Source of the DNA: Minisyncoccia bacterium
GTDB lineage: Bacteria; Patescibacteriota; Minisyncoccia; Phycocordibacterales; UBA1006
Direction of reading: 5' to 3'
Length of the DNA: 32,219 nt
Assembly: GCA_047629175.1 (NCBI GenBank)
Contig: JBLHWN010000001.1
Location: 1-32,219 of the forward strand
This document shows, piece after piece, positions 1,190-30,035 of the stretch. The notes below the pieces were generated by a model. It was not told the origin of the DNA. It was given only the letters and a program-made list of their open reading frames with translations, and made no database searches. The number at the start of each line of letters is the position of its first letter. The first letter of the stretch is position 1. The position numbers and the translations under genes are program-made.

Positions 1190-1565
1190 GGGGATGACAG
1201 GCTTCGCTAGGAAGTTCGTTGTCTTCAAATTGCATATCGAGTTGGTAGTGAACTTGTAAAACGCTGCACTCCTTAACTGGAAAATCAATTGCTTCACCAT
1301 ACACGGTGAACACTCTAGCGCTCGCGTAACACACCTCGCGGCTAGTGCACCCTGCCCTACTGTTCAATACAGGTAACGGTGTATCATAAAATTTGATCTA
1401 GGAATATAGAGCTTTCTCCTCTATAAACTGAAACAAAGAAGAATCGAGGATTGATCGCTTTTGTCCTGCTTTTAGGTCATGACTCTAAACAAATTAAGTA
1501 AGACTATATATGTAGACGTTTGAAGGCTTCCTTCTTACACGGCGGTTCGAGTCCGCCCATCTCCA
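1190..1565 (+). ncRNA. ssrA: tmRNA (one-piece, standard order); CCA not encoded
   Basis: 5' GGGGATG (1190-1196) pairs with CATCTCC (1558-1564), including the G3-U70 wobble. GGCTTCGCT D-loop analogue. T-arm GGCGG-TTCGAGT-CCGCC (1541-1557), discriminator A 1565. Internal tag frame ends LALA-TAA. Sits next to smpB. Confidence 0.85.
1291..1329 (+). other. tmRNA tag-peptide reading frame (ASPYTVNTLALA-stop; possible earlier resume at GGA 1279 giving GKSIASPYTVNTLALA)
   Basis: In-frame GCT...CTA GCG CTC GCG TAA about 100 nt from the tmRNA 5' end. The hydrophobic LALA C-terminus is typical of degradation tags. The resume codon itself is not certain. Confidence 0.55.
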
Positions 1566-1569
1566 CAAA
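1548..1569 (+). repeat. 22-nt direct repeat, copy 1 (3' end of tmRNA)
   Basis: cgagtccgcccatctccacaaa, identical to 1735-1756. Confidence 0.95.
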
Positions 1570-1575
1570 ATTAAG

Positions 1576-1600
1576 AAAAGCCCTTTCGGGTTTTTCTTTT
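1576..1600 (+). terminator. intrinsic terminator after ssrA
   Basis: aaaagccc-tttc-gggttttt hairpin followed by a T-rich run. Confidence 0.6.
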
Positions 1601-1753
1601 GTGGAGATGAAGAACAGTCCTGTGAACTGTTCGGCGGACGAGAAAAGCGGACTCATGTACAATTGAGGAAGAATGACGAGCAGGACAGAGGAGCTGGGAC
1701 CAGCGTGAAAATGCATTAGCATTTTACATGTGGACGAGTCCGCCCATCTCCAC
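1601..1753 (+). ncRNA. candidate structured tRNA-like / tmRNA-derived RNA
   Basis: Closing 9-bp helix GTGGAGATG (1601-1609) / CATCTCCAC (1745-1753). Hairpin 1612-1632. GGCGGAC (1633-1639) / GTCCGCC (1738-1744) stacks directly on the closing helix. Nested CATGTA/TACATG (1654-1659/1725-1730) and AATGC/GCATT (1710-1714/1719-1723). Terminators on both sides. Confidence 0.35.
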
Positions 1754-1756
1754 AAA
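1735..1756 (+). repeat. 22-nt direct repeat, copy 2
   Basis: Identical to 1548-1569. Confidence 0.95.
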
Positions 1757-1757
1757 T

Positions 1758-1792
1758 AAATCCCCCTTCCTTACGGTTGGGGGATTTTTTTA
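1758..1792. terminator. bidirectional intrinsic terminator
   Basis: aaatccccc...gggggattttttt hairpin with A and T tracts. Lies between the tRNA-like element (+) and the stop of the M14-like gene (-). Confidence 0.7.
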
Positions 1793-1801
1793 TTCAGCTG
1801 T

Positions 1802-2908
1802 CTATACAGTATTTTTATGAGACATATAAATTACCTCAGTAAAAGTAGTGCTTACAGACTCTATTTCATTTTCAAGTTGTTCCGTCCGCATTTCTGCATC
1901 GATAATAGCTTGAATTTTTTCTACTTCTTCTTTCAATTTTCGTGCACGGTTTTTCTTTTTTGGCTCAAAGACTGTTGTGAAAAAATAGTAATAGTTATAA
2001 TGCCAAAAATCGGCCTTTTCTAAAACTGATAATTCAATAGTATTAGCATCTAGATTGGGATGACTCTCTTTAAATATTTGAGATAACCCTTCAAACAAAC
2101 CACCAAGTGTCGTGTAGTCTATCGATGCAAAATGCATACTATTTTTATTAATCGCATTAAAATGTGCAAACACTTTTTCCAAATGAGAAGGTATTCCAGT
2201 TCTCATATCAAATTCACTCCTCCATACTGTTGTCGCACGACTATTATTACCTGTATGGAAATCATACAGAGCAACTTTTTTATTATCAATAAGAATGTCA
2301 GAGACAATGTTTAATATTTCAAGAGTTTCAATTTGCAATTGACTATCACCCCGGTGGTACCAAGTCTTACCCATTAGAATAGTTATTTGTTTAATTGTAG
2401 GTGTCATTTTATAACCTCTAACAAATAAATAAGAAGGGACATCCGTGAGCGGAGATTTATACACATGGAAGTCACGCGCAAGATCTACACTCTTTTGATT
2501 GGTACGTTTATAATTCTCGAAACCCCAATAATTTACTATAGGAATCGCTATAATTCGGATACCCAAACGACATAATAAATCTTCGTTTACCAATTTAATA
2601 AAAATAAGTAAGGTTTGTATTGAAAAATATTCCAACCCATGAACCCCTGCCTGCAAAAAAATTACCTTCTTTGGGAATTTAGCACCTAAAACTGCCTTGT
2701 AAGGTACTTTATACAACCATGGCAACTCACGACCAATATTTCTGTCGATAAGTTTTCCAGATTGTAATAATTCTTGAATCATTTTCTGTATCTTTTGCTG
2801 AAGTCCTGGACGCAATCTAACCTTGCGTTGATCTCTAAAAGAGAGAACTATTTTATGAGCATTCAACATACCCATAAAAACTAGTAATACAATAAGTAGT
2901 GTTTCCAT
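1802..2908 (-). CDS. M14-family zinc carboxypeptidase-like protein (MpaA/DUF2817-like), N-terminal membrane anchor
   Basis: HxxE at AGVHGLEY (H90/E93), VDLARDF resembling the M14 DLNRNF motif, and a third His in YDFHTG (H218). The H-to-H spacing of about 128 aa matches carboxypeptidase A. Hydrophobic N-terminus, coiled-coil-like charged C-terminus. Confidence 0.6.
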   Translation of the reverse strand: METLLIVLLVFMGMLNAHKIVLSFRDQRKVRLRPGLQQKIQKMIQELLQSGKLIDRNIGRELPWLYKVPYKAVLGAKFPKKVIFLQAGVHGLEYFSIQTLLIFIKLVNEDLLCRLGIRIIAIPIVNYWGFENYKRTNQKSVDLARDFHVYKSPLTDVPSYLFVRGYKMTPTIKQITILMGKTWYHRGDSQLQIETLEILNIVSDILIDNKKVALYDFHTGNNSRATTVWRSEFDMRTGIPSHLEKVFAHFNAINKNSMHFASIDYTTLGGLFEGLSQIFKESHPNLDANTIELSVLEKADFWHYNYYYFFTTVFEPKKKNRARKLKEEVEKIQAIIDAEMRTEQLENEIESVSTTFTEVIYMSHKNTV

Positions 2909-2958: not shown

Positions 2959-2967
2959 TGATATAAT
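2959..2967 (+). promoter_or_regulatory. extended -10 TGaTATAAT (leadered; about 41 nt to ATG 3009)
   Basis: gtgatataat at 2958-2967. Confidence 0.45.
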
Positions 2968-3008
2968 TGCAAACGTATTATCAATTAATCATAAAAAAAA
3001 TATTTAAT

Positions 3009-3497
3009 ATGAAAAAATTACTAAAATATCTTCCACAAATTTTATTTGCTGCGGCACTTATCTTTATGGGGGCAATCGGAAAATTAACAGGAGCTGCTCC
3101 AGCAGTAGATATGTTCACGCAAATTGATTTATTTGGACAAGGTGAAGCATTTGGGCGAATTCTTGTAGGACTTGGACAACTTGCTGCTGGTATTGGAGTA
3201 TTCTTCAAACCAACACGTAAAATTGCTGCAGTAGTGGGAATCGTGATCATGGCAGGAGCTATCTTCTATTCAGTGACTCTCTTTGGAGCATCACCAATTA
3301 TCGCAATTGTGGTATTAGCACTTGGAGTATGGATCCTTCTAAAAGGTGGATGTAAAGGATGTTGTACAAAAGGAGCATGTGATTCATCAAAGAAATGCGA
3401 CAGTGGTAAATGCTGTGAAGGAGAAACATGTGACGCTTCAAAGAAATGTGAAGGAGGAACATGCCCTGCTGAGAAAGCAGAGATGAGCGAAGAATAA
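3009..3497 (+). CDS. DoxX-like four-helix membrane protein with Cys-rich C-terminal tail
   Basis: About four hydrophobic helices (LFAAALIFMGAIGKL..., GRILVGLGQLAAGIGVFF, AAVVGIVIMAGAIFY, IIAIVVLALGVWILL), then 10 Cys in about 40 aa. Start placed at MKKLL (3009). Confidence 0.55.
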   Translation: MKKLLKYLPQILFAAALIFMGAIGKLTGAAPAVDMFTQIDLFGQGEAFGRILVGLGQLAAGIGVFFKPTRKIAAVVGIVIMAGAIFYSVTLFGASPIIAIVVLALGVWILLKGGCKGCCTKGACDSSKKCDSGKCCEGETCDASKKCEGGTCPAEKAEMSEE

Positions 3498-3560
3498 TAT
3501 TTTATTCTTAAAAAATTAAATGAATAAGGTCACATTAGTGATTATTATGAATTTGATAAA

Positions 3561-3590
3561 ATAAAACACCGAAAGGTGTTTTATTTTTTT
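3561..3590. terminator. bidirectional terminator (DoxX / secA convergent pair)
   Basis: aaaacacc-gaaa-ggtgtttt with flanking A/T tracts. Overlaps the secA stop. Confidence 0.75.
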
Positions 3591-6037
3591 CTTGTTTCCC
3601 AACCTGCTGCGATAAAGTCATCAAGTTTTTTCTTTTTAACTCGACGTACTTCTCCATTTTTCATTATCTCAACATTGTCGTCTTTTTTAGCTAAGACAGG
3701 AGTATCTGATTCACCTTGAGTTGCAGTAGCACTTTGCTTTCTAAGCTCAACATGAGCAAACAGTTCAGCAACCTTACTCGTAAATGCATCTCCCATCTCC
3801 TGATACAAACGTAATCCTTCTTTCTTGTACTCTACTAATGGATCACGTTGACCATAAGCACGAAGATTTACTGACTGACGTGTGTAGTCCATAACCTGCA
3901 AGTGTTGCATCCATAACATATCCGTAACATATAAAGTAATCCGCGTGAACAATTCTTGGTATTGTTTTAGATCAAGTTCTTCTTGTTTCTTTTTGATCAT
4001 TGCTGACCAATCCTCGTTCACCGTCAGAATATTTGTTTCAATTTCTTTGATGATTTTCATATCACCTGCAAGAATTTTTCCACGTCGATCATACACTGTA
4101 TCACGTTGGTATGACAAAACATTATCATAATCAAGAACTGATTTACGTCCATCAAAGTGAAATCCTTCTACCTTTTCTTGAGCTCCTTCGAGCTGCTTTG
4201 AAATCATTTTGTTTTGAATAGCTTCGTCATCTTTTAGACCAAGCTTAGAAACGATCGATTTTAGTCGATCACCTCCAAATATTTTCATAATTGGATCTTC
4301 AAGTGATACATAGAACTGCGTCTCTCCAGCGTCTCCCTGACGTCCAGCACGTCCACGTAGCTGGTCATCAATACGGCGAGCATCATGTCTTTCCGTACCT
4401 AACACGAACAAACCACCCAGGTCTTTGATCTCTTGTTCTTGTTCTGGTGTTGCTGGGTTCCCTCCTAACTTAATATCAACACCACGTCCTGCCATGTTCG
4501 TCGCAATAACTACTGATCCGGCCTTTCCGGCCTGAGCAATAATTTCTCCTTCGTTTTCATGATTCTTTGCATTCAACATTTGGTGACGAACTCCTGCCTG
4601 CATAAGATATGCTGATAACATTTCATTATTTTCTACAGACACCGTACCGATCAAAACAGGTTGTCCTTTGGCTTGTTTTTCTTTTACCTTTACTGCAATC
4701 GCTTTAAATTTTGCTTCTTCTGTTTGGTAAATTAAATCAATTTGATCTAAACGCTGGATTTCTCGATGCGTTGGAATAACCACTACATCCATGCCATATA
4801 CTTTTTGGAATTCTTCCTCGGATGACATACCTGTCCCTGTCATACCTGAGAGCTTTTTATAAAACTTGAAATAGTTCTGGTAGGTAATTGACGCCATTGT
4901 CTTTGATTCTTGCTGAATGGTTACACGTTCTTTTGCCTCAAGAGCCTGGTGCAATCCATCAGAATAACGACGTCCGTCTTGCAAGCGACCAGTAAACTGA
5001 TCAACAATAATTACTTCGTTCTTTTGTACAACATAATCACGATCTCGCAGGAATACAGACTGAGCACGCAAAGATGTCTCTAAATGGTGAACGAGTTTAA
5101 TATTTTCTTGGGTATAAATATTTTTAATCTTTAATGATTTTTCAGCCTTGTTGATCCCTTGATCAGTAATTGTCACAGCCCGTAGTTTTTCATCAACCTC
5201 GTAGTCTTCCCCTTTTACAAGAGATTTTGCAATGGTGTTCATTGCGGCATAAATATCACCTGCATTATCTGCAGCTGTCGAAAGGATCAATGGTACGCGC
5301 GCCTCATCAATTAAAATTGAATCTACCTCATCAATAACGACATAGTTGTGCCCACGTTGAACGACTTGTTCTGGTCGTTGCGCGGTATTATCCCGCAAGT
5401 AATCAAAACCAAATTGGTTATTAGTACCGTACGTAATATCAGCCTCATATGCTGATTTTCGTTTTGTTGGTTTCAGGAATTCATAAAAGATTCTAAATGA
5501 ACCAAGCTCATCACGCTCTTCATCAACCTCCTGATGACCCGGATCGTACATAAATGATTGCTCTTTGTCGTTAATAATTCCAATTGAAAGACCATGGAAA
5601 GCGAAAACTTGACCCATCCATTGTGCATCACGTCGTGCCAAGTAATCGTTTACCGTCACAACATGGACCCCTTTTTCTGTTAAGGCATTTAGGTATGTAG
5701 GTAAGGTTGAAACTAATGTCTTTCCTTCCCCAGTTCTCATTTCAGTAATAAGACCTTCGTGAAGCATTATCCCTCCCATTAATTGAACATCATAATGCCG
5801 TTGACTAAGCGTTCGGACTGCTGTTTCTCGAACAACGGCAAAAGCCTCAGGAAGAATCTCATCAAGAGTTTCTCCTTGTGTTAGGCGATCTTTAAATTCC
5901 TGTGTTTTATCTTTTAGATGTTCATCAGATAGCGCTTCTATTTCTGACTCTAGAGCATTGATTTTTTCAACTGTTTTTTGAACGTTTTTTAGCTTCTTTT
6001 GGTTCTCGTCTCCAAACATTTTCTTCAATAATTTCAT
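3581..6037 (-). CDS. secA: preprotein translocase ATPase SecA
   Basis: 818 aa. MRTGEGKTL Walker A, VIDEVDSILIDEARVPLI, TNMAGRGVDI motifs and SecA-type N-terminus. Confidence 0.95.
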   Translation of the reverse strand: MKLLKKMFGDENQKKLKNVQKTVEKINALESEIEALSDEHLKDKTQEFKDRLTQGETLDEILPEAFAVVRETAVRTLSQRHYDVQLMGGIMLHEGLITEMRTGEGKTLVSTLPTYLNALTEKGVHVVTVNDYLARRDAQWMGQVFAFHGLSIGIINDKEQSFMYDPGHQEVDEERDELGSFRIFYEFLKPTKRKSAYEADITYGTNNQFGFDYLRDNTAQRPEQVVQRGHNYVVIDEVDSILIDEARVPLILSTAADNAGDIYAAMNTIAKSLVKGEDYEVDEKLRAVTITDQGINKAEKSLKIKNIYTQENIKLVHHLETSLRAQSVFLRDRDYVVQKNEVIIVDQFTGRLQDGRRYSDGLHQALEAKERVTIQQESKTMASITYQNYFKFYKKLSGMTGTGMSSEEEFQKVYGMDVVVIPTHREIQRLDQIDLIYQTEEAKFKAIAVKVKEKQAKGQPVLIGTVSVENNEMLSAYLMQAGVRHQMLNAKNHENEGEIIAQAGKAGSVVIATNMAGRGVDIKLGGNPATPEQEQEIKDLGGLFVLGTERHDARRIDDQLRGRAGRQGDAGETQFYVSLEDPIMKIFGGDRLKSIVSKLGLKDDEAIQNKMISKQLEGAQEKVEGFHFDGRKSVLDYDNVLSYQRDTVYDRRGKILAGDMKIIKEIETNILTVNEDWSAMIKKKQEELDLKQYQELFTRITLYVTDMLWMQHLQVMDYTRQSVNLRAYGQRDPLVEYKKEGLRLYQEMGDAFTSKVAELFAHVELRKQSATATQGESDTPVLAKKDDNVEIMKNGEVRRVKKKKLDDFIAAGWETRKK

Positions 6038-6200: not shown

Positions 6201-6343
6201 GTATAAACCAAAAGAAGAAGAAAATGAACTACAGAGCTTTCCGCAGAAGCGACAATAGTGAATTTTGTCAGAAAAAGAATTCTTACTTATTATGACCTTT
6301 TTTCTGTAAAACGAACTCAAAATTTTTCTAAAAAAAAAGAAGA

Positions 6344-6826
6344 CTATGCTTCAATTTTTTCTTCAACGGGAGTTTCCTCGGCTGCTGGTGCTTCTTCTGT
6401 TTCAGTAACTTCTTCGATTACTGAAGCCTCTTCTACTGGTGCTTCTTCAGTTGTGTCTTCAACTACTGGTGCTTCTTTGGCTACATCAGCTTTTGGTTTA
6501 GATACTGGTGCCTTGACTTCTGGTTCTTCATCTGGTGCATTTCGTTTTTTTGTTGGTGACTTCTTAGGGAGAACGTTTTTCTTTCGTCCTTCTATAAGAC
6601 CTTTTGTTACCAACATATTGAATACGGTGTCAGAAGGTTGTACCCCTTTTGAAAGCCAATCTTTTGCTGCAGCTTCATCCAAAGTAACTGTTCCCATTTT
6701 TGGGTTGTATGATCCTAAAATATCAACATACCGGTGTGATTTAGGGCCTTTTGTTTTTTCAATAACGACAATTTTGAAGTGTGCTTCATTTCGTCGTCCT
6801 ACTCGTTGTAATCTCATCATTAACAT
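6344..6826 (-). CDS. rpsP: 30S ribosomal protein S16 with long acidic C-terminal extension
   Basis: MLMMRLQRVGRRNEAHFKIVV...GSYNP is an S16 core of about 80 aa, followed by about 75 aa of K/P then E/A/P/V-rich low complexity. Confidence 0.9.
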   Translation of the reverse strand: MLMMRLQRVGRRNEAHFKIVVIEKTKGPKSHRYVDILGSYNPKMGTVTLDEAAAKDWLSKGVQPSDTVFNMLVTKGLIEGRKKNVLPKKSPTKKRNAPDEEPEVKAPVSKPKADVAKEAPVVEDTTEEAPVEEASVIEEVTETEEAPAAEETPVEEKIEA

Positions 6827-6835
6827 ATGCGCCTG

Positions 6836-6863
6836 ATACTATCAAAATAATAGCTTTTGGCAA
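6836..6863 (-). promoter_or_regulatory. rpsP promoter: TTGCCA - 16 nt - TGaTAGTAT, 9 nt upstream of the ATG
   Basis: Minus strand reads TTGCCA(6863-6858) ... tgaTAGTAT(6841-6836) caggcgcat ATG(6826). Confidence 0.55.
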
Positions 6864-12922: not shown

Positions 12923-14032
12923 TTATTCAGAAAGTAATTTAATAAGCTCTGCTTTCTTGAGTGCTGTGTACGCACTAAGACCTCGTTCTTTTGCGAGCGC
13001 CTTGAGTTCAGCGACTTTCATCGAAGCTACATCTACGTGTTCCGTTACAACATTTTCAGTTTCCTTAAGAGATGCTGCAATCCTCTCTACTTTTTCTTGA
13101 ATTTCTTGTGCGGGCATTCCAGGAACTTTTCCCGTTAATTCAGTAATCATTCCCATTGCCTTAATTAACATTTTTGAGACATCCTCGTAGATGTTTAAAT
13201 CGGTAATGTCATCTAATTCAAACCAGCGCACATCATCAAGACCACCAGAGCCAACCTCTAGGGTTGGTTGTGTGTATACTGATTTCGCCAAGAAATATTC
13301 AACATGTTTTCGAACCGGTCCTCGCTCAGGATGGTACGCAATGTATTCATTATCACCAAGGTCAGCCATTATTTCAACAGTCCAGTCTGTTTCTTCTTTT
13401 ATTGCCCTGATCGTTCCTTCTGTAGGCGTCTCACCTTCTTTAATTCCACCTTTTGAAAGAGTCCAATATCCAAATACATCATGAACCATTCCAATTCGTA
13501 CAACATCATGTTGATCAACACTGTAGAGAACCGCTGCCCCTTTTTGATCAATAGGCATTTCTTCGTAAGGAGTTTCCGGCATTTTTGGTTTCGTTGTTTG
13601 GTCTTTTCCTGGTTCACCAATTTCTCGGTAGACCGCACCTAAAATACCGTTTACAAATTTGTTAGATTTTGGACCGCCAAAACGCTTCGCTAATTCGACT
13701 GCTTCGTTGATTGCAACTTTCGGAGGTACCACAGCGTGATCACCAAAAAGAAGTTCGTACAAACCGAGCCGCAAGACATTGCGGTCAGTGGTCGATATTT
13801 TCTTCAGAGGCCAATCCGGTGCAGCTTTTTCGATAATTTCATCAATTACGGTGTGCTTCTTAACAATCTCTTGAGCAAAAGAAAGTATCTCACCATCGTC
13901 ATCATCAGAGTCATTAAAAGAACTCAGGGTATATCCTAAGTAGTGTGAAATAGCGGTATTATCATAACCCCGCACATCCCATTCATACAACGTTTGTAAA
14001 AGAATTGTTCTGAACAACTGCCTGTTTGCCAT
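12923..14032 (-). CDS. nusB: NusB - Nudix hydrolase - Rho_N/SAP-like three-domain fusion protein
   Basis: aa 1-140 are NusB-like (DRNVLRLGLYELLF, AINEAVELAKRFGG..FVNGILG). aa about 165-300 carry a Nudix box GGIKEGETPTEGTIRAIKEETDW. The C-terminus MKVAELKALAKERGLSAYTALKKAELIKLL is Rho N-terminal-like. Confidence 0.8.
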   Translation of the reverse strand: MANRQLFRTILLQTLYEWDVRGYDNTAISHYLGYTLSSFNDSDDDDGEILSFAQEIVKKHTVIDEIIEKAAPDWPLKKISTTDRNVLRLGLYELLFGDHAVVPPKVAINEAVELAKRFGGPKSNKFVNGILGAVYREIGEPGKDQTTKPKMPETPYEEMPIDQKGAAVLYSVDQHDVVRIGMVHDVFGYWTLSKGGIKEGETPTEGTIRAIKEETDWTVEIMADLGDNEYIAYHPERGPVRKHVEYFLAKSVYTQPTLEVGSGGLDDVRWFELDDITDLNIYEDVSKMLIKAMGMITELTGKVPGMPAQEIQEKVERIAASLKETENVVTEHVDVASMKVAELKALAKERGLSAYTALKKAELIKLLSE

Positions 14033-19709: not shown

Positions 19710-21452
19710 ATGACTGATATTGAGAAAAAACGACATTCCCTTGCTCACCTGCTCGCTGCAGCAACATTAAAACTCTACCCTGATACCAAGGTAACCTTGG
19801 GGCCGGCTGTTGATAATGGATTCTATTACGATATGGATTTTGCAGAACCAATAAATGATGCGGATCTTAAAAAAATCCAAAAAACTATGAAAAAAATGGC
19901 AAATTCATGGACCACTTTTGAAGGTAAGAAAGTTTCGGCGGATGAAGCGCGTGACGTCTTTAAAGGAAACGAATATAAAATTGAACTCATTAATGAGATC
20001 GAAGCAAAAGGTGAAGAGATTACACTCTACACGTCAGGTGACTTCACCGACCTTTGCCGTGGAGGGCATGTCGAAAATTTCAAAGAAGAAATTAGTATGG
20101 ATGCATTTAAACTAGAGCGTCTTGCTGGTGCATATTGGCGAGGAGATGAAAATAACAAAATGCTTACGCGTATTTATGGATTAGCTTTTGATACCAAGGA
20201 AGAACTTGCTGCGTACATAACGCAACAAGAAGAAGCGAAAAAACGTGACCACCGAAAAATTGGTAAGGAGCTTGGTCTCTTCACCTTCTCAGAAAAGGTT
20301 GGACCAGGTCTTCCTCTCTTTACACCAAAAGGAACAAAGATGAGAAATCTCGTAATAGAGAAAATTACAAGCATCCAATCAGAATATGGATACGAACAAG
20401 TTTGTGTTCCACATATTACGAAATCTGATCTTTATAAAACATCAGGTCACTGGGATAAATACAAAGACGATCTTTTTTATGTAAAAGGTAAATCAGATGC
20501 TGAATTTGTCATGAAGCCAATGAACTGCCCTCACCATACCCAAATCTTCGATGCTGAACCTCGTTCGTATCGTGACCTTCCTCTTCGTTATGCAGAAACC
20601 ACTATGGTATACCGTGATGAACAAGCAGGAGAATTAATGGGGCTTTCCCGTGTTCGCTCAATTACACAGGATGACGGACATATCTTCTGTACACCAGATC
20701 AAATCAAAGTCGAAGTAAATAATATCGTTTCAATCATCAGAGAATTCTACACAGCTATGGAAATGTTTAATGATGGTGATTATTGGGTGTCATTATCAGT
20801 TCGTGACTCAAAAGACCTTGGTAAATATATCGGAGAAAACACGCTCTGGGACACAGCTGAATCAATCCTCGAAGAGATCGCACAAGAAAATAATCTCAAC
20901 TACAAACGAGTAGAAGGTGAAGCAGCATTTTATGGACCAAAACTTGATTTCCAATTTCGGGATGCTATTGGACGAGAATGGCAATTAGGAACAGCTCAAT
21001 TAGACTTCGTTCAACCTGCTCGGTTTGAACTTGAGTACACAGATAACGAAGGAAATCGTCAGACTCCTGTTATGATTCACCGTGCTATTGCAGGATCACT
21101 AGAGCGGTTTATGTCCCTCGCTATTGAACACTTTGCTGGTCACTTCCCTCTTTGGCTTGCTCCAACGCAGATTGCTATCATTCCAATCAACCTCGAGGCA
21201 CACAGTTCGTATGCACAGTCTGTATTTGAATCACTCAAAGCATCTGGCGCACGCGTTGAACTATGGAACGATGACCATGACGGATTTGGTAAGAAAGTCC
21301 GTAAAGCCAAAAACAACAAACTGCCTTATTGGATTGTTATAGGTGATGAAGAAGTCAATTCAAAAACAATAACAATAGAAACAAAGGACGGCGGTGAAAA
21401 AGGAAAAACATTGGATTCATTTATAGATTCAATTAAAGATTTATTAAAATAA
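19710..21452 (+). CDS. thrS: threonyl-tRNA synthetase lacking the N-terminal TGS domain
   Basis: 580 aa. Begins at the editing-domain HSLAHLL motif and retains CRGGHV. Class II core and anticodon-binding domain are present. Confidence 0.95.
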   Translation: MTDIEKKRHSLAHLLAAATLKLYPDTKVTLGPAVDNGFYYDMDFAEPINDADLKKIQKTMKKMANSWTTFEGKKVSADEARDVFKGNEYKIELINEIEAKGEEITLYTSGDFTDLCRGGHVENFKEEISMDAFKLERLAGAYWRGDENNKMLTRIYGLAFDTKEELAAYITQQEEAKKRDHRKIGKELGLFTFSEKVGPGLPLFTPKGTKMRNLVIEKITSIQSEYGYEQVCVPHITKSDLYKTSGHWDKYKDDLFYVKGKSDAEFVMKPMNCPHHTQIFDAEPRSYRDLPLRYAETTMVYRDEQAGELMGLSRVRSITQDDGHIFCTPDQIKVEVNNIVSIIREFYTAMEMFNDGDYWVSLSVRDSKDLGKYIGENTLWDTAESILEEIAQENNLNYKRVEGEAAFYGPKLDFQFRDAIGREWQLGTAQLDFVQPARFELEYTDNEGNRQTPVMIHRAIAGSLERFMSLAIEHFAGHFPLWLAPTQIAIIPINLEAHSSYAQSVFESLKASGARVELWNDDHDGFGKKVRKAKNNKLPYWIVIGDEEVNSKTITIETKDGGEKGKTLDSFIDSIKDLLK

Positions 21453-21476
21453 AAAACGCATATGCGTTTTTTATTT
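21451..21476. terminator. bidirectional terminator; copy 1 of an identical 26-nt repeat
   Basis: aaaaaacgcatatgcgttttttattt. Overlaps the thrS stop and the stop of the 424-aa gene. Confidence 0.8.
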
Positions 21477-22765: not shown

Positions 22766-22843
22766 TGTGCATATTTATATTACATTATTTAATAGTAAAT
22801 AATTTCACTTTCAAAAAGAAATATACCTAGATGATAGGATTTA

Positions 22844-22869
22844 AAAAAACGCATATGCGTTTTTTATTT
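22844..22869. terminator. terminator; copy 2 of the identical 26-nt repeat
   Basis: aaaaaacgcatatgcgttttttattt, 7 nt downstream of the EEP gene stop. Confidence 0.8.
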
Positions 22870-24897: not shown

Positions 24898-24945
24898 ACG
24901 CGATTAAGTTTGGTTAGTGTTCAATTAAACCATATTCTTAAAAAT

Positions 24946-24966
24946 AAAAAAGCCTAAGGCTTTTTT
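24946..24966 (-). terminator. terminator after gyrB
   Basis: aaaaaagcc-taa-ggctttttt. Confidence 0.7.
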
Positions 24967-24969
24967 ATT

Positions 24970-27051
24970 TTAAATATCAATCTCAACGAGTTTTGCATTG
25001 TTCTGAATAAATGCCTTACGAGGAGCAACATCTGCCCCCATCAAGGTATCAAAGATTTGATCAGCCTCCATAGCATCATCAACGGTTACTTGCTTTAATG
25101 TTCGCGTTTCAGGATCCATAGTTGTTTCCCATAATTCCTCTGCGTTCATTTCTCCCAGTCCTTTATATCGTTGAAGGTGAACTTTTCCTGACTTCTTTTT
25201 CTTAGTTTCTTTTCCTTCGTCCTCCCCATCAACAGCATCTTCTTCGTCATCTGATTCATCAGGAACATCTTGTTCAACACCAAGCTCCTTCAAAATAGCA
25301 TTTTTCTCATCTTCATAATACGCATAATGAAGTGATTTCCCTTTTTTGATTTTGTACAAAGGTGGTTGAGCAATATACAGATATCCTAAATCAATCATCT
25401 CTCGGAAATAACGGAAGAAGAACGTCATCAAAAGGATTCGAATATGAGCTCCATCGACATCCGCATCCGTCGCGATAACAATTTTCTTGTAACGTATTTT
25501 TTCGATATCAAAGGTTTCTCCAATTGAAGTACCAAACGCGATCACCATTGACTTGATTTCATTGTTTCCAAGCATACGATCTAAACGAACACGCTCTACG
25601 TTCAATGGTTTACCTCGTAGTGGCAAAATAGCCTGTGTTCTTCGATCACGTCCTTGTTTAGCAGTACCTCCCGCAGAATCTCCCTCAACAATAAAGATCT
25701 CAGCTTCATCAGCATTTTTGGTCTGACAGTCAGTTAGCTTACCGGGTAAGGTAAACCCTTCTAGAGCTCCTTTACGAAGAATCGAATCTTTGGCTGCCTT
25801 TGCTGCCTTTCGTGCCTTCAGAGCCAGTGCTGCCTTCCGTAGAATAGATTTCGCGTCATCAGGGTTCTCTTCTAGGAAATTAGAGAATGATTCAGCAAAG
25901 ATTGATTCCACAGCTCCGCGCGCCTCAGGTGAACCAAGTTTGTCTTTGGTTTGCCCTTCGAATTGAATCTCTTTCATTTTTACCGAAACAACAGAGGTAA
26001 TTCCTTCAAGAACATCATCACCTGTGAGTGCTCCATCTTTTTCAGAAAGAATTTTATTCTTTTTGTTGTATACATTCAAGAGACGTGTAAGTGCCGTCTT
26101 GAATCCAGTAATATGCATTCCTCCTCCTGGCGTTGAAATGTTGTTAGCAAACGGAACAATACGAGGTGAAATATCATTTACATATTGCAATGCAACTTCT
26201 ACGTGGATTCCATCCTCAGTTTCTTTTTCAACATGGAATATGTTCTTATGTACTGGTTTTTGGTGAGCGTTTAAATAGCGCACCATAGATACAATTCCGC
26301 CCTCAAAGTAGAAACTTTGTGATGGGACCTGCATATTCAGGTCTCCAAGATAATAGGTATCTTCTAAATCAATGTCTCCTGTATACTCTCGTGCATCAAT
26401 CAATGAAACACGAAGATTCTTTACAAGATATGCTTGTTGTTGGTAGTGCTTGATAATACGTTCCCAATTCCATTTTACCTCTTCGAAGATAGTTACGTCA
26501 GGCTGGAAGGTAATAACCGTTCCATTATGTTTTGTCTTTCCAAATTTCTTTACATCCTTTTTTGGTTTTCCAATTGAATACTCTTGGAAATATTTATCAC
26601 CATCCTTGTGTACTTCTGCTCGAGTATAAGTAGAAAGTGCGTTTACTACAGAAGCTCCAACTCCATGCAAACCTCCAGAGAATTTATAAGCTTCGTTATC
26701 GAACTTACCTCCAGCATGAAGGACCGTCATAATAACCTCCAGGGCTGACTTACCAGTTTTAGCATGTTTTCCAACTGGAATACCACGTCCATTATCAGCC
26801 ACTCGGACAATATTATCAGGTAATAATGTAATTTCGATATGATCACAAAAACCTCCCATCGCCTCATCACGGGAGTTATCAAAAACCTCGCGGATCAAGT
26901 GATGTAGACCATCAGGACCTGTTGATCCGATGTACATTCCAGGACGTTTTCGTACTGGTTCTAATCCTTCTAGGACAGAAATATCGCTCGCACTATATTC
27001 ATTTTTTGCTGCTGGTTTTTTAGTATCTTTTTTAGTCGTTTTTTTAGTCAT
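24970..27051 (-). CDS. gyrB: DNA gyrase subunit B
   Basis: LEGLEPVRKRPGMYIGS, HHLIREVFDNSRDEA, EGDSAGG, QRYKGLGEMN. Confidence 0.95.
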   Translation of the reverse strand: MTKKTTKKDTKKPAAKNEYSASDISVLEGLEPVRKRPGMYIGSTGPDGLHHLIREVFDNSRDEAMGGFCDHIEITLLPDNIVRVADNGRGIPVGKHAKTGKSALEVIMTVLHAGGKFDNEAYKFSGGLHGVGASVVNALSTYTRAEVHKDGDKYFQEYSIGKPKKDVKKFGKTKHNGTVITFQPDVTIFEEVKWNWERIIKHYQQQAYLVKNLRVSLIDAREYTGDIDLEDTYYLGDLNMQVPSQSFYFEGGIVSMVRYLNAHQKPVHKNIFHVEKETEDGIHVEVALQYVNDISPRIVPFANNISTPGGGMHITGFKTALTRLLNVYNKKNKILSEKDGALTGDDVLEGITSVVSVKMKEIQFEGQTKDKLGSPEARGAVESIFAESFSNFLEENPDDAKSILRKAALALKARKAAKAAKDSILRKGALEGFTLPGKLTDCQTKNADEAEIFIVEGDSAGGTAKQGRDRRTQAILPLRGKPLNVERVRLDRMLGNNEIKSMVIAFGTSIGETFDIEKIRYKKIVIATDADVDGAHIRILLMTFFFRYFREMIDLGYLYIAQPPLYKIKKGKSLHYAYYEDEKNAILKELGVEQDVPDESDDEEDAVDGEDEGKETKKKKSGKVHLQRYKGLGEMNAEELWETTMDPETRTLKQVTVDDAMEADQIFDTLMGADVAPRKAFIQNNAKLVEIDI

Positions 27052-27916: not shown

Positions 27917-29335
27917 ATGAAACAAATACAACAGAAGAAGACAAAGATTGTGGCGACGATGGGACCCGTCACGCGAAATAAAAAAACATTAAGCGCAATG
28001 GCACATGCCGGACTCAATGTTGCTCGTATGAATTTCAGTCACGGCACACACGAAGACCATCTTCATACTTTTAATTTGGTTCGCTCTGTTGAAAAATCTA
28101 CAAAGAAACCATTGGCAATATTACAAGACCTATCTGGACCTAAAATTCGTGTCGGAAAAGTCGAAGAAGGAACGATGCTGATACATGGAGCAAAATTTAT
28201 ACTAACAACTACGAAATGCGTAGGTGACGACAAGCAAGCATTTGTAAATTATAAAAAACTTCCTATTGAGGTTTCAAAAGGATCAACGATTAAAGTTGAT
28301 GATGGGAAACTCGAATTATTTGTAGATAAAATTTCCGGGAATAATATTCACTGTACGATAATTGTTGGAGGGCCACTTTCATCAAACAAGGGTGTTAACC
28401 TTCCTGATACGATCCTTTCTATTTCATCACTCACAGCGAAAGATAAAAAGGATGTTCTCTTTGGCATTAAACATGATGTTGATTATATTGCACTCTCCTT
28501 TGTACAAACAGCTAATGATGTGAGAGATCTTCGAAGAATTCTTGATAAACACCAAAGCAAGGCAAAAATTATTGCTAAAATTGAAACAACCCCAGCTGTG
28601 GAAAATATTGATGCGATCTTATCAGTCTCAGATGGGGCCATGGTTGCCCGTGGTGATATGGCCGTTGAAGTTGGTGTAGAGAGAGTTCCATTAATTCAAA
28701 AAATGATTATTGAAAAATGTAATCAATTAGGTAAACCAGTTATTACAGCGACGCAAATGCTTGATTCAATGGAGAAATCTCCGGTTCCAACACGAGCCGA
28801 AGTATCTGATATTGCGAACGCTATTCTAGATGGTACTGATGCGATTATGCTCTCTGGTGAATCAGCAGTAGGTCAGTATCCTGTTGAGTCAGTACAAACA
28901 ATGACCAATATTGCACAGCGAACTGAGTCACACTGTGCGAACAAAAATCTAAAATACTTTGGACAATCTAAAGAAATTGTTGATACCATGTCTATCTCAG
29001 TAGTACGAATTGCAAATAATGTGCGAGCCCGACTTATCGTCACACTAACTGAATCAGGACTTACGCCACATATGATTGCTCGATTTAAACCTCACCATGG
29101 AATTATCGCAATTACGCCTAAACGGAGAACTTTTAATCAGTTACAACTCTTATACGGGTGTAAACCTGTCTTGTCAGATATGTCAGGTGGCATTACAAAA
29201 CTGACCAAAGAAATTCAACAGTTGGTCAAAAAAAATCAATGGGCGGATGCAGGTGAAAAATTGGTAGTAAGTATGGGTTCAAAATTTGGGGTCCCAGGAT
29301 CAACTGATACTATTTTTGTTATTGAAGCAAAATAA
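27917..29335 (+). CDS. pyk: pyruvate kinase
   Basis: KTKIVATMGP, MNFSHG, MVARGDMAVE and TQMLDSM motifs. Confidence 0.9.
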   Translation: MKQIQQKKTKIVATMGPVTRNKKTLSAMAHAGLNVARMNFSHGTHEDHLHTFNLVRSVEKSTKKPLAILQDLSGPKIRVGKVEEGTMLIHGAKFILTTTKCVGDDKQAFVNYKKLPIEVSKGSTIKVDDGKLELFVDKISGNNIHCTIIVGGPLSSNKGVNLPDTILSISSLTAKDKKDVLFGIKHDVDYIALSFVQTANDVRDLRRILDKHQSKAKIIAKIETTPAVENIDAILSVSDGAMVARGDMAVEVGVERVPLIQKMIIEKCNQLGKPVITATQMLDSMEKSPVPTRAEVSDIANAILDGTDAIMLSGESAVGQYPVESVQTMTNIAQRTESHCANKNLKYFGQSKEIVDTMSISVVRIANNVRARLIVTLTESGLTPHMIARFKPHHGIIAITPKRRTFNQLQLLYGCKPVLSDMSGGITKLTKEIQQLVKKNQWADAGEKLVVSMGSKFGVPGSTDTIFVIEAK

Positions 29336-29354
29336 AAACGCATTATGCGTTTTT
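29334..29354. terminator. bidirectional terminator, variant of the cgcat-atgcg family; both convergent stop codons lie inside it
   Basis: aaaaacgcat-t-atgcgttttt. pyk TAA at 29333-29335, methyltransferase stop at 29343-29345. Confidence 0.75.
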
Positions 29355-30035
29355 ATTTTTTACATAACAATTCCAATAATTCCGTTTATATGACTGTGCT
29401 CCCCACCGCTGATAACCAGTCTTTCTTTCCATGCGAACAACTTCGAGATGTTTATTATAGAGTTCCTTAAAATCTGGACCAGAGAAAATTCGTTCGGTGA
29501 CGCCTAGTTGTGGATGCTTATACGTATCATAACCTGGACCCGGAAATTCTTTTACCATTTTTTGTGCATTCTTGTCTCCTTCTCTTGCTAATGTTCGTAC
29601 ATACATATAACCCGTTGGTTTTAACACACGTTCACATTCTTTTAAATAGGTACCTCGTTCAGATTCACTTAATGCATTCGACGTTGTTACATCCAAAATA
29701 ATATCAACTGAATCATCATCAAGAGGAAATGGTTTTCCAACATTCCGTGTCTCAAATCTCACTAATTCGTGCCCGTGAATTTTCTTTGCTTTCTCAATAG
29801 CATCAGAGGAAAAATCCCATCCATAAACTTTTGCATCATAATGATCAGCCATATAAAAACTGTTTCTTCCTACCCCACACCCAAGATCCAAAACAGTGAT
29901 TCCAGAATACAGATCTATATGCTTATTATTTTTAATCCACTTAATAAATCGGAGGAAATCTTTCTGCGGTTTATGTGACTGGGTAACGAGTTGTGGTTTT
30001 TGATATTCTTGATCCCATGATTGCTGATTATTCAT
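29343..30035 (-). CDS. class I SAM-dependent methyltransferase
   Basis: Motif I VLDLGCGVGRN and post-I acidic residue. Start set to ATG 30035 (MNNQQSW) on the -10 spacing; the ORF is open from GTG 30059. Confidence 0.75.
   Translation of the reverse strand: MNNQQSWDQEYQKPQLVTQSHKPQKDFLRFIKWIKNNKHIDLYSGITVLDLGCGVGRNSFYMADHYDAKVYGWDFSSDAIEKAKKIHGHELVRFETRNVGKPFPLDDDSVDIILDVTTSNALSESERGTYLKECERVLKPTGYMYVRTLAREGDKNAQKMVKEFPGPGYDTYKHPQLGVTERIFSGPDFKELYNKHLEVVRMERKTGYQRWGAQSYKRNYWNCYVKNKNA

Follow-up and report, generated by a model that had tools for sequence, protein, structure and literature searches.

A family of small, gene-less and strongly structured elements at the 3' ends of tmRNA and tRNA-Ile genes in Patescibacteria

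We have analysed a stretch of 32,219 nucleotides (nt) from a Minisyncoccia bacterium (UBA1006; assembly GCA_047629175.1, contig JBLHWN010000001.1, positions 1-32,219, forward strand), called the window here. In this window the last 22 nt of the transfer-messenger RNA (tmRNA) gene ssrA occur again behind the gene, and the DNA between the two copies forms a strong predicted fold. Related elements were found behind ssrA in three other lineages of Patescibacteria and behind a tRNA-Ile gene of the same genome. They represent a family, not described before, of tiny insertions that lack genes and have a strong structure, placed at tmRNA and tRNA (t(m)RNA) 3' ends. In Rfam 15 no family reached its gathering score on the element, and searching 1560-1800 at E up to 10 added nothing; the best sub-threshold match, Yfr10 at 32 bits, covers only the terminator and a small hairpin. 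No description of such elements was found in the literature searched, in agreement with the original prediction, made from the DNA letters alone, which knew of no described family with this layout.

The tmRNA gene and its repeated end

The features of the locus on which the analysis rests are as follows.

1190-1568, plus strand: tmRNA gene ssrA, tag ASPYTVNTLALA (ARAGORN, 1190-1566; Rfam RF00023, 1190-1568, 108.5 bits).
1548-1569, plus strand: proximal copy of the 22-nt repeat, covering the 3' portion of the T-loop, the T-stem and acceptor 3' strands, the discriminator and CAAA.
1735-1756, plus strand: distal copy of the repeat, from the repeat match and the flanks of relatives.
1570-1756, or equivalently 1548-1734 depending on the crossover point, plus strand: putative inserted unit of 187 bp, from the repeat spacing.
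1760-1792, no strand assigned: second terminator, ATCCCCC...GGGGGAT with a T-run (stem 1760-1766/1779-1785), from a terminator scan.

The ssrA gene, in which CCA is not encoded, lies downstream of smpB (229-717) and a DUF1653 gene. As originally noticed, its end recurs exactly: the 22-mer CGAGTCCGCCCATCTCCACAAA is present at 1548-1569 and 1735-1756 only in the whole window, with 0 expected in shuffles, and no further copy appeared in the window when 3 mismatches were allowed. The repeat starts inside the T-loop (TT|CGAGT, position C56) and ends 4 nt beyond the discriminator, and its proximal copy is the functional 3' end of the tmRNA. The 165 bp separating the copies hold no credible open reading frame (ORF), and no recombinase gene is present anywhere in the 32-kb window. 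A small ORF in the element was rejected, its frame not being kept among the window, a relative (L098) and the tRNA-Ile copy; a third degenerate repeat past the DUF2817 gene was also rejected, none being present. No promoter-like site was found for the element, and a terminator sits directly upstream of it. The second terminator separates it from the convergent DUF2817 gene (1802-2908, minus strand). Of the two terminators originally proposed to bracket the element, this downstream one was found by the scan; the upstream hairpin (1576-1595) was not flagged by it, though evident from the sequence.

The fold and its relatives

The ssrA-downstream regions of relatives were gathered with SmpB as an anchor and then compared. 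L-numbers denote the loci or contigs of relatives, or of the same population, that were used; L103-L108 come from the same population as the window, and the closest SmpB relatives are Patescibacteria metagenome-assembled genomes with 69-73% identity. Window-type homologues follow ssrA in L098 (75% identical) and L132. A covariance model built from window-type elements (R1) missed the elements of L074/L121/L122 and L084/L085, which have an equal layout after ssrA and were therefore treated as a second subfamily. Several of the SmpB-anchored contigs stop before or shortly past ssrA, which leaves fewer independent elements. In L002/L129, L107, L108 and L131 the contig ends at or inside the element shortly past ssrA; such ends suggest strain heterogeneity or repeat-induced assembly breaks.

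A paralogue is located directly 3' of tRNA-Ile(UAU) in the window's own genome, ~3.8 kb upstream of window position 1 and on the opposite strand; the tRNA itself scored 61 bits. Both t(m)RNA genes within the ~38 kb of this genome examined carry an element. The direct repeat of the paralogue corresponds to the last 19 nt of tRNA-Ile and starts at the identical T-loop position, CGAGT, and both of its closing 5' strands complement the tRNA-Ile end, not the tmRNA end. The two paralogues are 66% identical in the core and 46% in the tailored ends. As a separate observation, the 5' leader TGGTAC of this tRNA-Ile (L103 3692-3697, minus strand) complements its discriminator and encoded CCA (GTACCA), lengthening the acceptor stem of the precursor.

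The window element consists of the following parts.

1558-1609, no strand assigned: near-palindrome centred on the terminator loop, with perfect arms 1558-1570/1597-1609.
1576-1600, plus strand: hairpin resembling an intrinsic terminator, AAAAGCCC-TTTC-GGGTTTTT (1576-1595), then CTTTT, read from the sequence.
1597-1609, plus strand: TTTTGTGGAGATG, which forms the 5' side of the closing helix P1 and is an inverted, Watson-Crick copy of the tmRNA end.
1612-1632, plus strand: hairpin P2, GAACAGT-CCTGTGA-ACTGTTC, at the acceptor/T-stem boundary of the inverted copy.
1633-1639, plus strand: 5' strand of helix P3, GGCGGAC, continuing the inverted copy of the gene end.
1640-1699, plus strand: central core with helices 1646-1648/1693-1695 and 1652-1660/1683-1690 and the unpaired conserved motif AGGAAG.ATGACGAGC.
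1700-1733, plus strand: hairpin P5, CCAGCGTG-AAAATGC-ATTA-GCATTTT-A-CATGTGG, leading to the junction GGA|CGAGT.

The segment 1598-1756 (159 nt) folds at -59.4 kcal/mol, against -37.2 +/- 3.4 in 200 dinucleotide shuffles (z = -6.6). Each element carries an inverted copy of the 3' end of its host gene just past the gene's terminator, and gene end, terminator and inverted copy form one long palindrome, of which one arm is always the host gene's own 3' end (window, L103, L138, L074). In the window the left arm is the tmRNA 3' end with its trailer and the right arm the inverted copy, and outside the perfect arms all positions are matched except for 1 substitution and a 2-nt gap. The perfect arms measure 13 nt in the window and 17 nt in L074, and in L138 arms of 25 nt match at 92% with 20-nt inner arms. 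At tRNA-Ile in L103 the palindrome is perfect over 58 bp (3569-3626, minus strand; 29-nt arms) and is composed of the last 12 nt of the tRNA, the trailer and an inverted copy of both. The terminator-like hairpin at 1576-1600 is part of the element, with homologous hairpins in L132, L098 and the tRNA-Ile copy. Near-identical palindromic terminators with an A-tract, a GC-stem and a T-tract (AAAATAAAAAACGCATATGCGTTTTTTATTT) also lie between convergent genes of the window at 21446-21476, 22839-22869, 29329-29359, 24940-24970 and 3558-3588, similar in style to the hairpins inside the element.

The originally proposed pairing of GTGGAGATG (1601-1609) with CATCTCCAC (1745-1753) proved to be part of a longer complementarity, namely 12 nt with the distal copy (1598-1609 with 1745-1756) and 13 nt with the proximal one (1597-1609 with 1558-1570). 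GGCGGAC pairs with GTCCGCC at 1738-1744 as proposed, abutting 1745-1753 without a spacer here and in all homologues, or equally with 1551-1557. In the window subfamily, tmRNA and tRNA versions alike, P2 divides the inverted copy precisely where acceptor and T-stem meet, and P1 of the tRNA-Ile paralogue shows complete covariation with its host gene. What the inverted copies reproduce is the exact Watson-Crick complement of the 3' strand and not the 5' strand of the gene itself. The tmRNA G3-U70 wobble becomes A-U, as first noted in the window and now also in L098, L132 and the L074/L084 type, and G1-U72 and U6-G67 of tRNA-Ile become A-U and C-G in the paralogue. Among 113 t(m)RNA genes with sufficient downstream sequence in the loci compared, inverted 9-mers of the gene end are nearly confined to element-bearing genes. 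Serine-integrase half-sites were rejected as the source of the inverted copy, since they need adjacency, yet the segments are 26-51 nt apart.

Two further explanations, an internally deleted tandem paralogue of ssrA or a group I intron in the T-loop, we regard as hardly credible. The 5' strand GGAGATG does resemble the tmRNA 5' end GGGGATG, and the T-loop of tmRNA, where the element has its insertion point, is a known location of group I introns (PMC11915505). However, ARAGORN and Rfam found one tmRNA only, with neither a second one nor an intron (Intron_gpI) in 1560-1800 at E up to 10, and no group I core was detected. The element has a terminator and a duplicated 3' exon, and an intron would not duplicate its exon. 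The description of the element as tmRNA-derived did not hold either: only the 3' end is duplicated, blastn against the tmRNA body returned the inverted 12-mer alone, the 5' strands are complements of the 3' strand, and the same core follows a tRNA gene.

Covariation was examined in an alignment of 5 window-type sequences with 54 consensus pairs, in which 92.9% of the cells are paired. Double-sided changes occurred in 22 of the 54 pairs, against 7.5 +/- 2.2 in column shuffles (0/500 as high), and sliding the partners by 1-3 columns left only 0-5 pairs with double changes. Since 15 of the 22 lie in the internal helices P2, P4 and P5, copying of the host gene cannot explain them. All 7 pairs of P2 are paired in the 5 sequences (100%), 2 of them with compensatory changes; 5 of the 14 pairs of P5 show double changes, and one G-U pair on its sense strand is invariant (5/5). 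Alignment helices 4-6 of the central core show double changes in 8 of 14 pairs, and a P5-like match is also present in L138. Cells with G-U number ~15 and those with A-C 8, most of the latter in L132, whose copy is decaying. In each of the four element types the sense strand gives the better fold of the two strands.

The closing helix, the hairpin 1612-1632, the 1633-1639/1738-1744 helix and the hairpin 1700-1733 are kept in relatives. The alternative pairing of GCGGACTC (1647-1654) with GAGTCCGC (1736-1743) is present in the letters of the window and is not conserved in relatives. Of the further local helices suggested from the window, 1612-1632 and 1710-1714/1719-1723 are as claimed; 1654-1659/1725-1730 can likewise form and is not conserved. 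The suggested alignment of ssrA-downstream regions recovered the element in relatives, where its fold is kept with compensatory changes, and the suspicion that the locus is more than a bare attachment (att) scar was borne out, the fold being real. Because of the covariation, the invariant G-U pair, the excess of G-U over A-C and the sense-strand bias, we consider from these alignments that the structure is under selection and that the selected form would be a single strand, RNA or DNA, in the sense of the host gene. The fold is a selected or built-in property of the element family.

Such a pattern would also be expected of a functional structured RNA, serving the host or itself, which is a possible, though not a probable, explanation. 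The RNA would arise by terminator read-through and be trimmed by tRNA-processing enzymes, and its outer helices would copy the acceptor and T-stem half of the neighbouring gene; the RNA might act as a processing module, decoy or regulator. On the one hand, the strong covariation, the invariant G-U pair and the sense-strand bias fit this explanation, the element is always co-oriented with its host gene, its own terminator follows in 2/3 cases, and the window encodes RNase III and RNase R as possible processing enzymes. The T-stem-like and acceptor-like 3' strands are contiguous as in tRNA, and the sharing of one continuous 3' strand by such helices, a strand identical to that of a real t(m)RNA, recalls RNase P minihelix substrates and the tRNA-like domain of the bacterial Y-RNA YrlA. 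This part of the minihelix proposal stood, the helices being stacked on that strand. On the other hand, the element is no minihelix of the canonical kind: only CGAGT of TTCGAGT is kept and ~95 nt (1640-1734) separate the T-stem-like strands, splitting the T-loop. The acceptor-like helix spans discriminator and trailer, CATCTCCACAAA being fully paired with TTTGTGGAGATG and the tRNA-Ile copy being paired through its trailer, which leaves no free NCCA-type tail for RNase Z, the CCA-adding enzyme, aminoacyl-tRNA synthetases or EF-Tu; G3-U70, a mark of alanine identity in tmRNA, is lost, and Rfam gave no match. The lack of a promoter-like site and the terminator directly upstream also speak against an RNA, as do the decay and patchy presence of the element described below. 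A hammerhead-like core (UGACGAG / GAAA) was rejected, as it had no Rfam support and no consistent stems.

Probable insertion, decay and use of the site by islands

The loci compared in this section include the following.

L103 3421-3582 (to 3626 with the palindrome), minus strand: tRNA-Ile paralogue (blastn 70% over 100 nt, E 1.5e-6; R1 150 bits).
L103 ~3180-3420, minus strand: older degenerate element behind the first distal copy, with terminator, inverted copy CCAGAGCGACTCGAAA, P5-like hairpin and GACCGAGCCCCTC.
L107 2015-2099, compared with the window from 1567 onward: alternative flank; the contig ends after 85 nt.
L076 9074-10714, minus strand: serine recombinase gene whose reading frame runs into the tmRNA 3' end.

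The direct repeats, the flanks, a tandem array and the islands found at the same site together suggest that the element was inserted. In the element-free L001 and L109/L110, TTGACAAT and an AT-rich hairpin directly follow the tmRNA, and in L098 and L084 the same TTGACAAT comes directly behind the distal copy; an empty site of the window's own species was not recovered. The spacing from proximal to distal copy is 187, 188, 187, 193, 197 and 191 bp in six independent instances covering both subfamilies, a near-constant unit length although the subfamilies differ in internal sequence. The tRNA-Ile site in L103 is a tandem array with the newer unit adjoining the gene, and the older remnant behind it has its homologue in L138 (7664-7957), where one element alone follows this tRNA.

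The presence of the element is patchy. None was found at ssrA in L003, L078, L080, L082, L109, L120, L125 or L138, nor, although the tRNA is identical, behind tRNA-Ile in L002 and L087. L107, with an identical SmpB protein, departs from the window right after the tmRNA end (GAGTTCCAAAAACC...), its flank being either another insertion or the ancestral flank. Within the window's species, three other contigs differ just past the distal copy, and one has 2 substitutions inside the element. Two states of the element occur in the L129-L137 population: L132 has it complete, with a degraded 5' strand, and L134 has it in truncated form. The outer helices have decayed in L132 and are weaker in L098 and L074. 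Only 8 nt of the distal copy are left in L138, which makes the closing helix impossible, and the inverted copy is still perfect. Because of this patchiness, polymorphism and decay, the host can do without the element. Its absence from many close relatives with identical gene ends, the truncated and degraded copies and the state of L138 all count against a functional RNA.

In this clade the tmRNA end serves as a live attachment site. L075/L076/L077 have a gene for a large serine recombinase (Resolvase, Recombinase and Zn_ribbon_recom domains) that abuts the tmRNA 3' end, and the junction of island and tmRNA, CATCTCCACA|TGTGGGGAG, is palindromic. In L132 (1648 onward) the identical island end follows the distal copy of the element and not the tmRNA itself, and therefore the distal copy works as a secondary attachment site. 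Viral contigs gave one match only, at 22%, to the L076 recombinase. Scanning viral contigs for the exact pattern of the tmRNA end returned unrelated phages only, one of which, L069, carries a classic attP beside an integrase. Scanning them with the element's conserved 19-mer gave no match, and neither did a BLAST comparison of the element with phage and plasmid collections. In the more distant L097 (5660-6062), a 385-bp cassette lies between the tmRNA and an 18-nt distal copy; it contains an 85-aa GIY-YIG nuclease gene preceded by a perfect hairpin with a 20-bp stem, and shows no inverted copy of the gene end.

As this site is occupied in relatives by islands with an integrase, one has to weigh whether internal deletion of such an island left a plain attL/attR scar, with leftover terminators folding incidentally. 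Direct repeats of this kind are typical of t(m)RNA-gene islands (PMC4383910), and P5 and the first hairpin resemble the local A-tract/T-tract terminators. However, independent deletions would not yield a 187-197-bp unit six times, and a scar gives no account of an inverted copy tailored to each host gene. Covariation in P2 and P4, which are not terminators, and the dissimilarity of the element to the serine-recombinase island ends also speak against this explanation, which we take to be quite unlikely. The idea of an integration scar that happens to fold was right in its att-type origin, the best supported one, and wrong in calling the folding incidental.

Passive local DNA errors, by which template switching at the terminator hairpin would give the inverted copy and slipped or fold-back duplication the direct copy, imply neither mobility nor function. 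Quasi-palindrome correction is an established mutational mechanism, and the inverted copy is indeed contiguous with the terminator, forming one palindrome that is perfect over 58 bp in L103. We nevertheless judge such errors very unlikely to be the explanation, since the same core, P2 and P5 occur beside two genes in several species with compensatory changes, P2 lies at the identical structural boundary in both targets, the unit size is constant, and the flank comparison points to insertion as a block.

A candidate miniature integrative element and its meaning

The best explanation, which in our estimate stands about an even chance of being right, is that the window holds a copy of a ~190-bp, ORF-less, structured, miniature and non-autonomous integrative element family in one Patescibacteria lineage. 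We read the element as miniature and non-autonomous because it has no integrase and a constant size near that of a typical attachment site. These elements would lodge in the segment from the T-loop to the 3' end of tmRNA or tRNA genes, presumably by the site-specific recombination that t(m)RNA-gene islands use. Each would deliver a replacement gene 3' end, a terminator, the inverted copy, the structured core and the terminal hairpin, and would shift the original gene end downstream as the distal direct repeat. In the window, the proximal copy (1548-1569) would then have been supplied by the element, and the distal copy (1735-1756) would be the displaced original end of the tmRNA. This agrees with the established course of integration into t(m)RNA genes (PMC4383910), in which incoming sequence makes the gene whole again and its former 3' fragment is displaced. 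With no recombinase encoded, movement would occur in trans, as expected of a miniature element consisting only of an att site. The inverted copy allows a single strand to rebuild the target-site duplex; this, together with the compensatory changes and the G-U bias of the sense strand, suggests that a single-stranded form, RNA or folded DNA, takes part in propagation. After insertion the element would decay, with the distal copy remaining usable by serine-recombinase islands. The predicted empty site has the tmRNA end joined to AAATAAATCCCCC, as at 1753|1757, and the predicted circle junction is ...ACATGTGGA joined to CGAGTCCGCC...AAAATTAAG.

Compared with t(m)RNA islands and prophages (Islander/TIGER; tyrosine or serine integrases), the element shares the 3' insertion, the restoration of the gene by its own sequence, the direct repeat starting in the T-loop, tandem accretion and a site used by integrase islands, but it measures only ~190 bp, lacks integrase and cargo, and has the inverted gene-end copy with its long palindrome and compensatory helices. 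In logic it resembles cis-mobilizable elements (CIMEs), other att-flanked non-autonomous elements and miniature inverted-repeat transposable elements (MITEs), all of constrained size and carrying recombination sites only, with the enzyme in trans; as in CIMEs, attL/attR-like repeats flank DNA without recombination genes. CIMEs, however, are kilobases long and recognisably derived from integrative and conjugative elements, whereas no parent of this element was recovered. MITEs have intrinsic terminal inverted repeats and short target duplications, whereas the ends of the element copy the target gene. A strict MITE was rejected for lack of intrinsic terminal repeats: the ends of the 165-bp insert (ATTAAGAAAAG... 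and ...ACATGTGGA) form no inverted repeat, 19-22 bp are duplicated, and there is one copy in 32 kb.

In integron attC sites and the attP of CTX phage, a folded single strand rebuilds the target-site duplex. With attC and CTX attP(+) (XerCD) the element has in common an imperfect palindrome, strand asymmetry, a target duplex rebuilt by intrastrand pairing, and one arm that is branched or bulged (by P2, or by a bulged A in the L074/L084 type). Its parts follow one another as predicted from CTX-type integration: direct site, loop, inverted site, body, direct site. Unlike these systems, it targets a t(m)RNA gene end and its single-stranded DNA stage is putative; no integron integrase, R/L boxes or dif-like motifs were identified, with no search aimed at R/L boxes or dif-like sites.

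Several points weigh against a miniature integrative element. No mobilizing recombinase was identified, only large serine recombinases being seen at the site, and the ends of the serine-recombinase islands have no sequence similarity to the element. No excised form, full-length parent or same-strain empty-site allele was recovered. A standard attP needs neither an inverted copy of the gene end nor helices with a sense-strand bias, and a move between tmRNA and tRNA-Ile needs three segments to be re-tailored, which plain integration leaves unexplained. The inverted copy fits the proximal gene end better than the distal copy in 4 of 5 informative cases, and in L084 it fits the distal and not the proximal copy, so the crossover point is not uniform. 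The sample is also small, with 5 window-type sequences (3-4 of them independent) and 2 of the second subfamily.

A different and, in our opinion, unlikely proposal is a new, target-programmed class of mobile element. Here a folded strand of ~190 nt, RNA or DNA, would carry two guide-like segments. Separated by a scaffold hairpin, they would be the complement of the final 20-25 nt of the chosen tRNA or tmRNA gene. The guides and the gene-end copy would rebuild the target duplex, a host or island recombinase would insert the element, and changed guide segments would retarget it, as between tmRNA and tRNA-Ile in one genome. By analogy, and with the same low expectation, its logic would be like that of attC, CTX attP or guide-bearing recombination RNAs, but directed at t(m)RNA genes.

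Elsewhere the window holds housekeeping genes: secA, rpsP and the genes for RNase R, SMC, RNase III, NusB and RNase HII, together with dnaE, thrS, gyrB and pyk. A single 369-aa ORF at 12923-14032 (minus strand) combines NusB, NUDIX and Rho_N/SAP-like domains, an unusual fusion. Ribosomal protein S16 (6344-6826, minus strand) has a C-terminal extension of ~80 aa with a high content of Glu, Ala, Pro and Val, for which imperfect 26-nt repeats (6376-6536) code; the long ORF that overlaps its gene in antisense (6258-6836) is probably spurious. At 2967-3497 (plus strand) lies a gene for a small membrane protein with a weak MauE/DoxX-like match and a cysteine-rich C-terminal tail (CKGCCTKGACDSSKKCDSGKCCEGETCDASKKCEGGTCP). 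This gene is kept beside secA in relatives, and the genes between it and ssrA vary, being DUF2817 in the window, Peptidase_S51 in L120 and a purH-like gene (MGS/AICARFT_IMPCHas) in L109.

The ends of tRNA and tmRNA genes are classic landing sites of genomic islands and, to our knowledge, the smallest known occupants of these ends either have an integrase or are no more than scars in decay. The unit described here, 190 bp long and free of genes, is present beside two different genes in several species, its fold conserved and its ends tailored to each gene. The elements make extra tmRNA or tRNA 3' ends that serve as secondary attachment sites, appear to break metagenome assemblies at ssrA, and can mislead island-mapping software. 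If the folded strand is active, folded-site recombination as in attC and CTX would be extended to t(m)RNA targets. If the element is mobile, it would represent, in the genome-reduced Patescibacteria, a minimal parasite of t(m)RNA integration that consists of an att site only, and a natural example of the specificity of an attachment site being rewritten.

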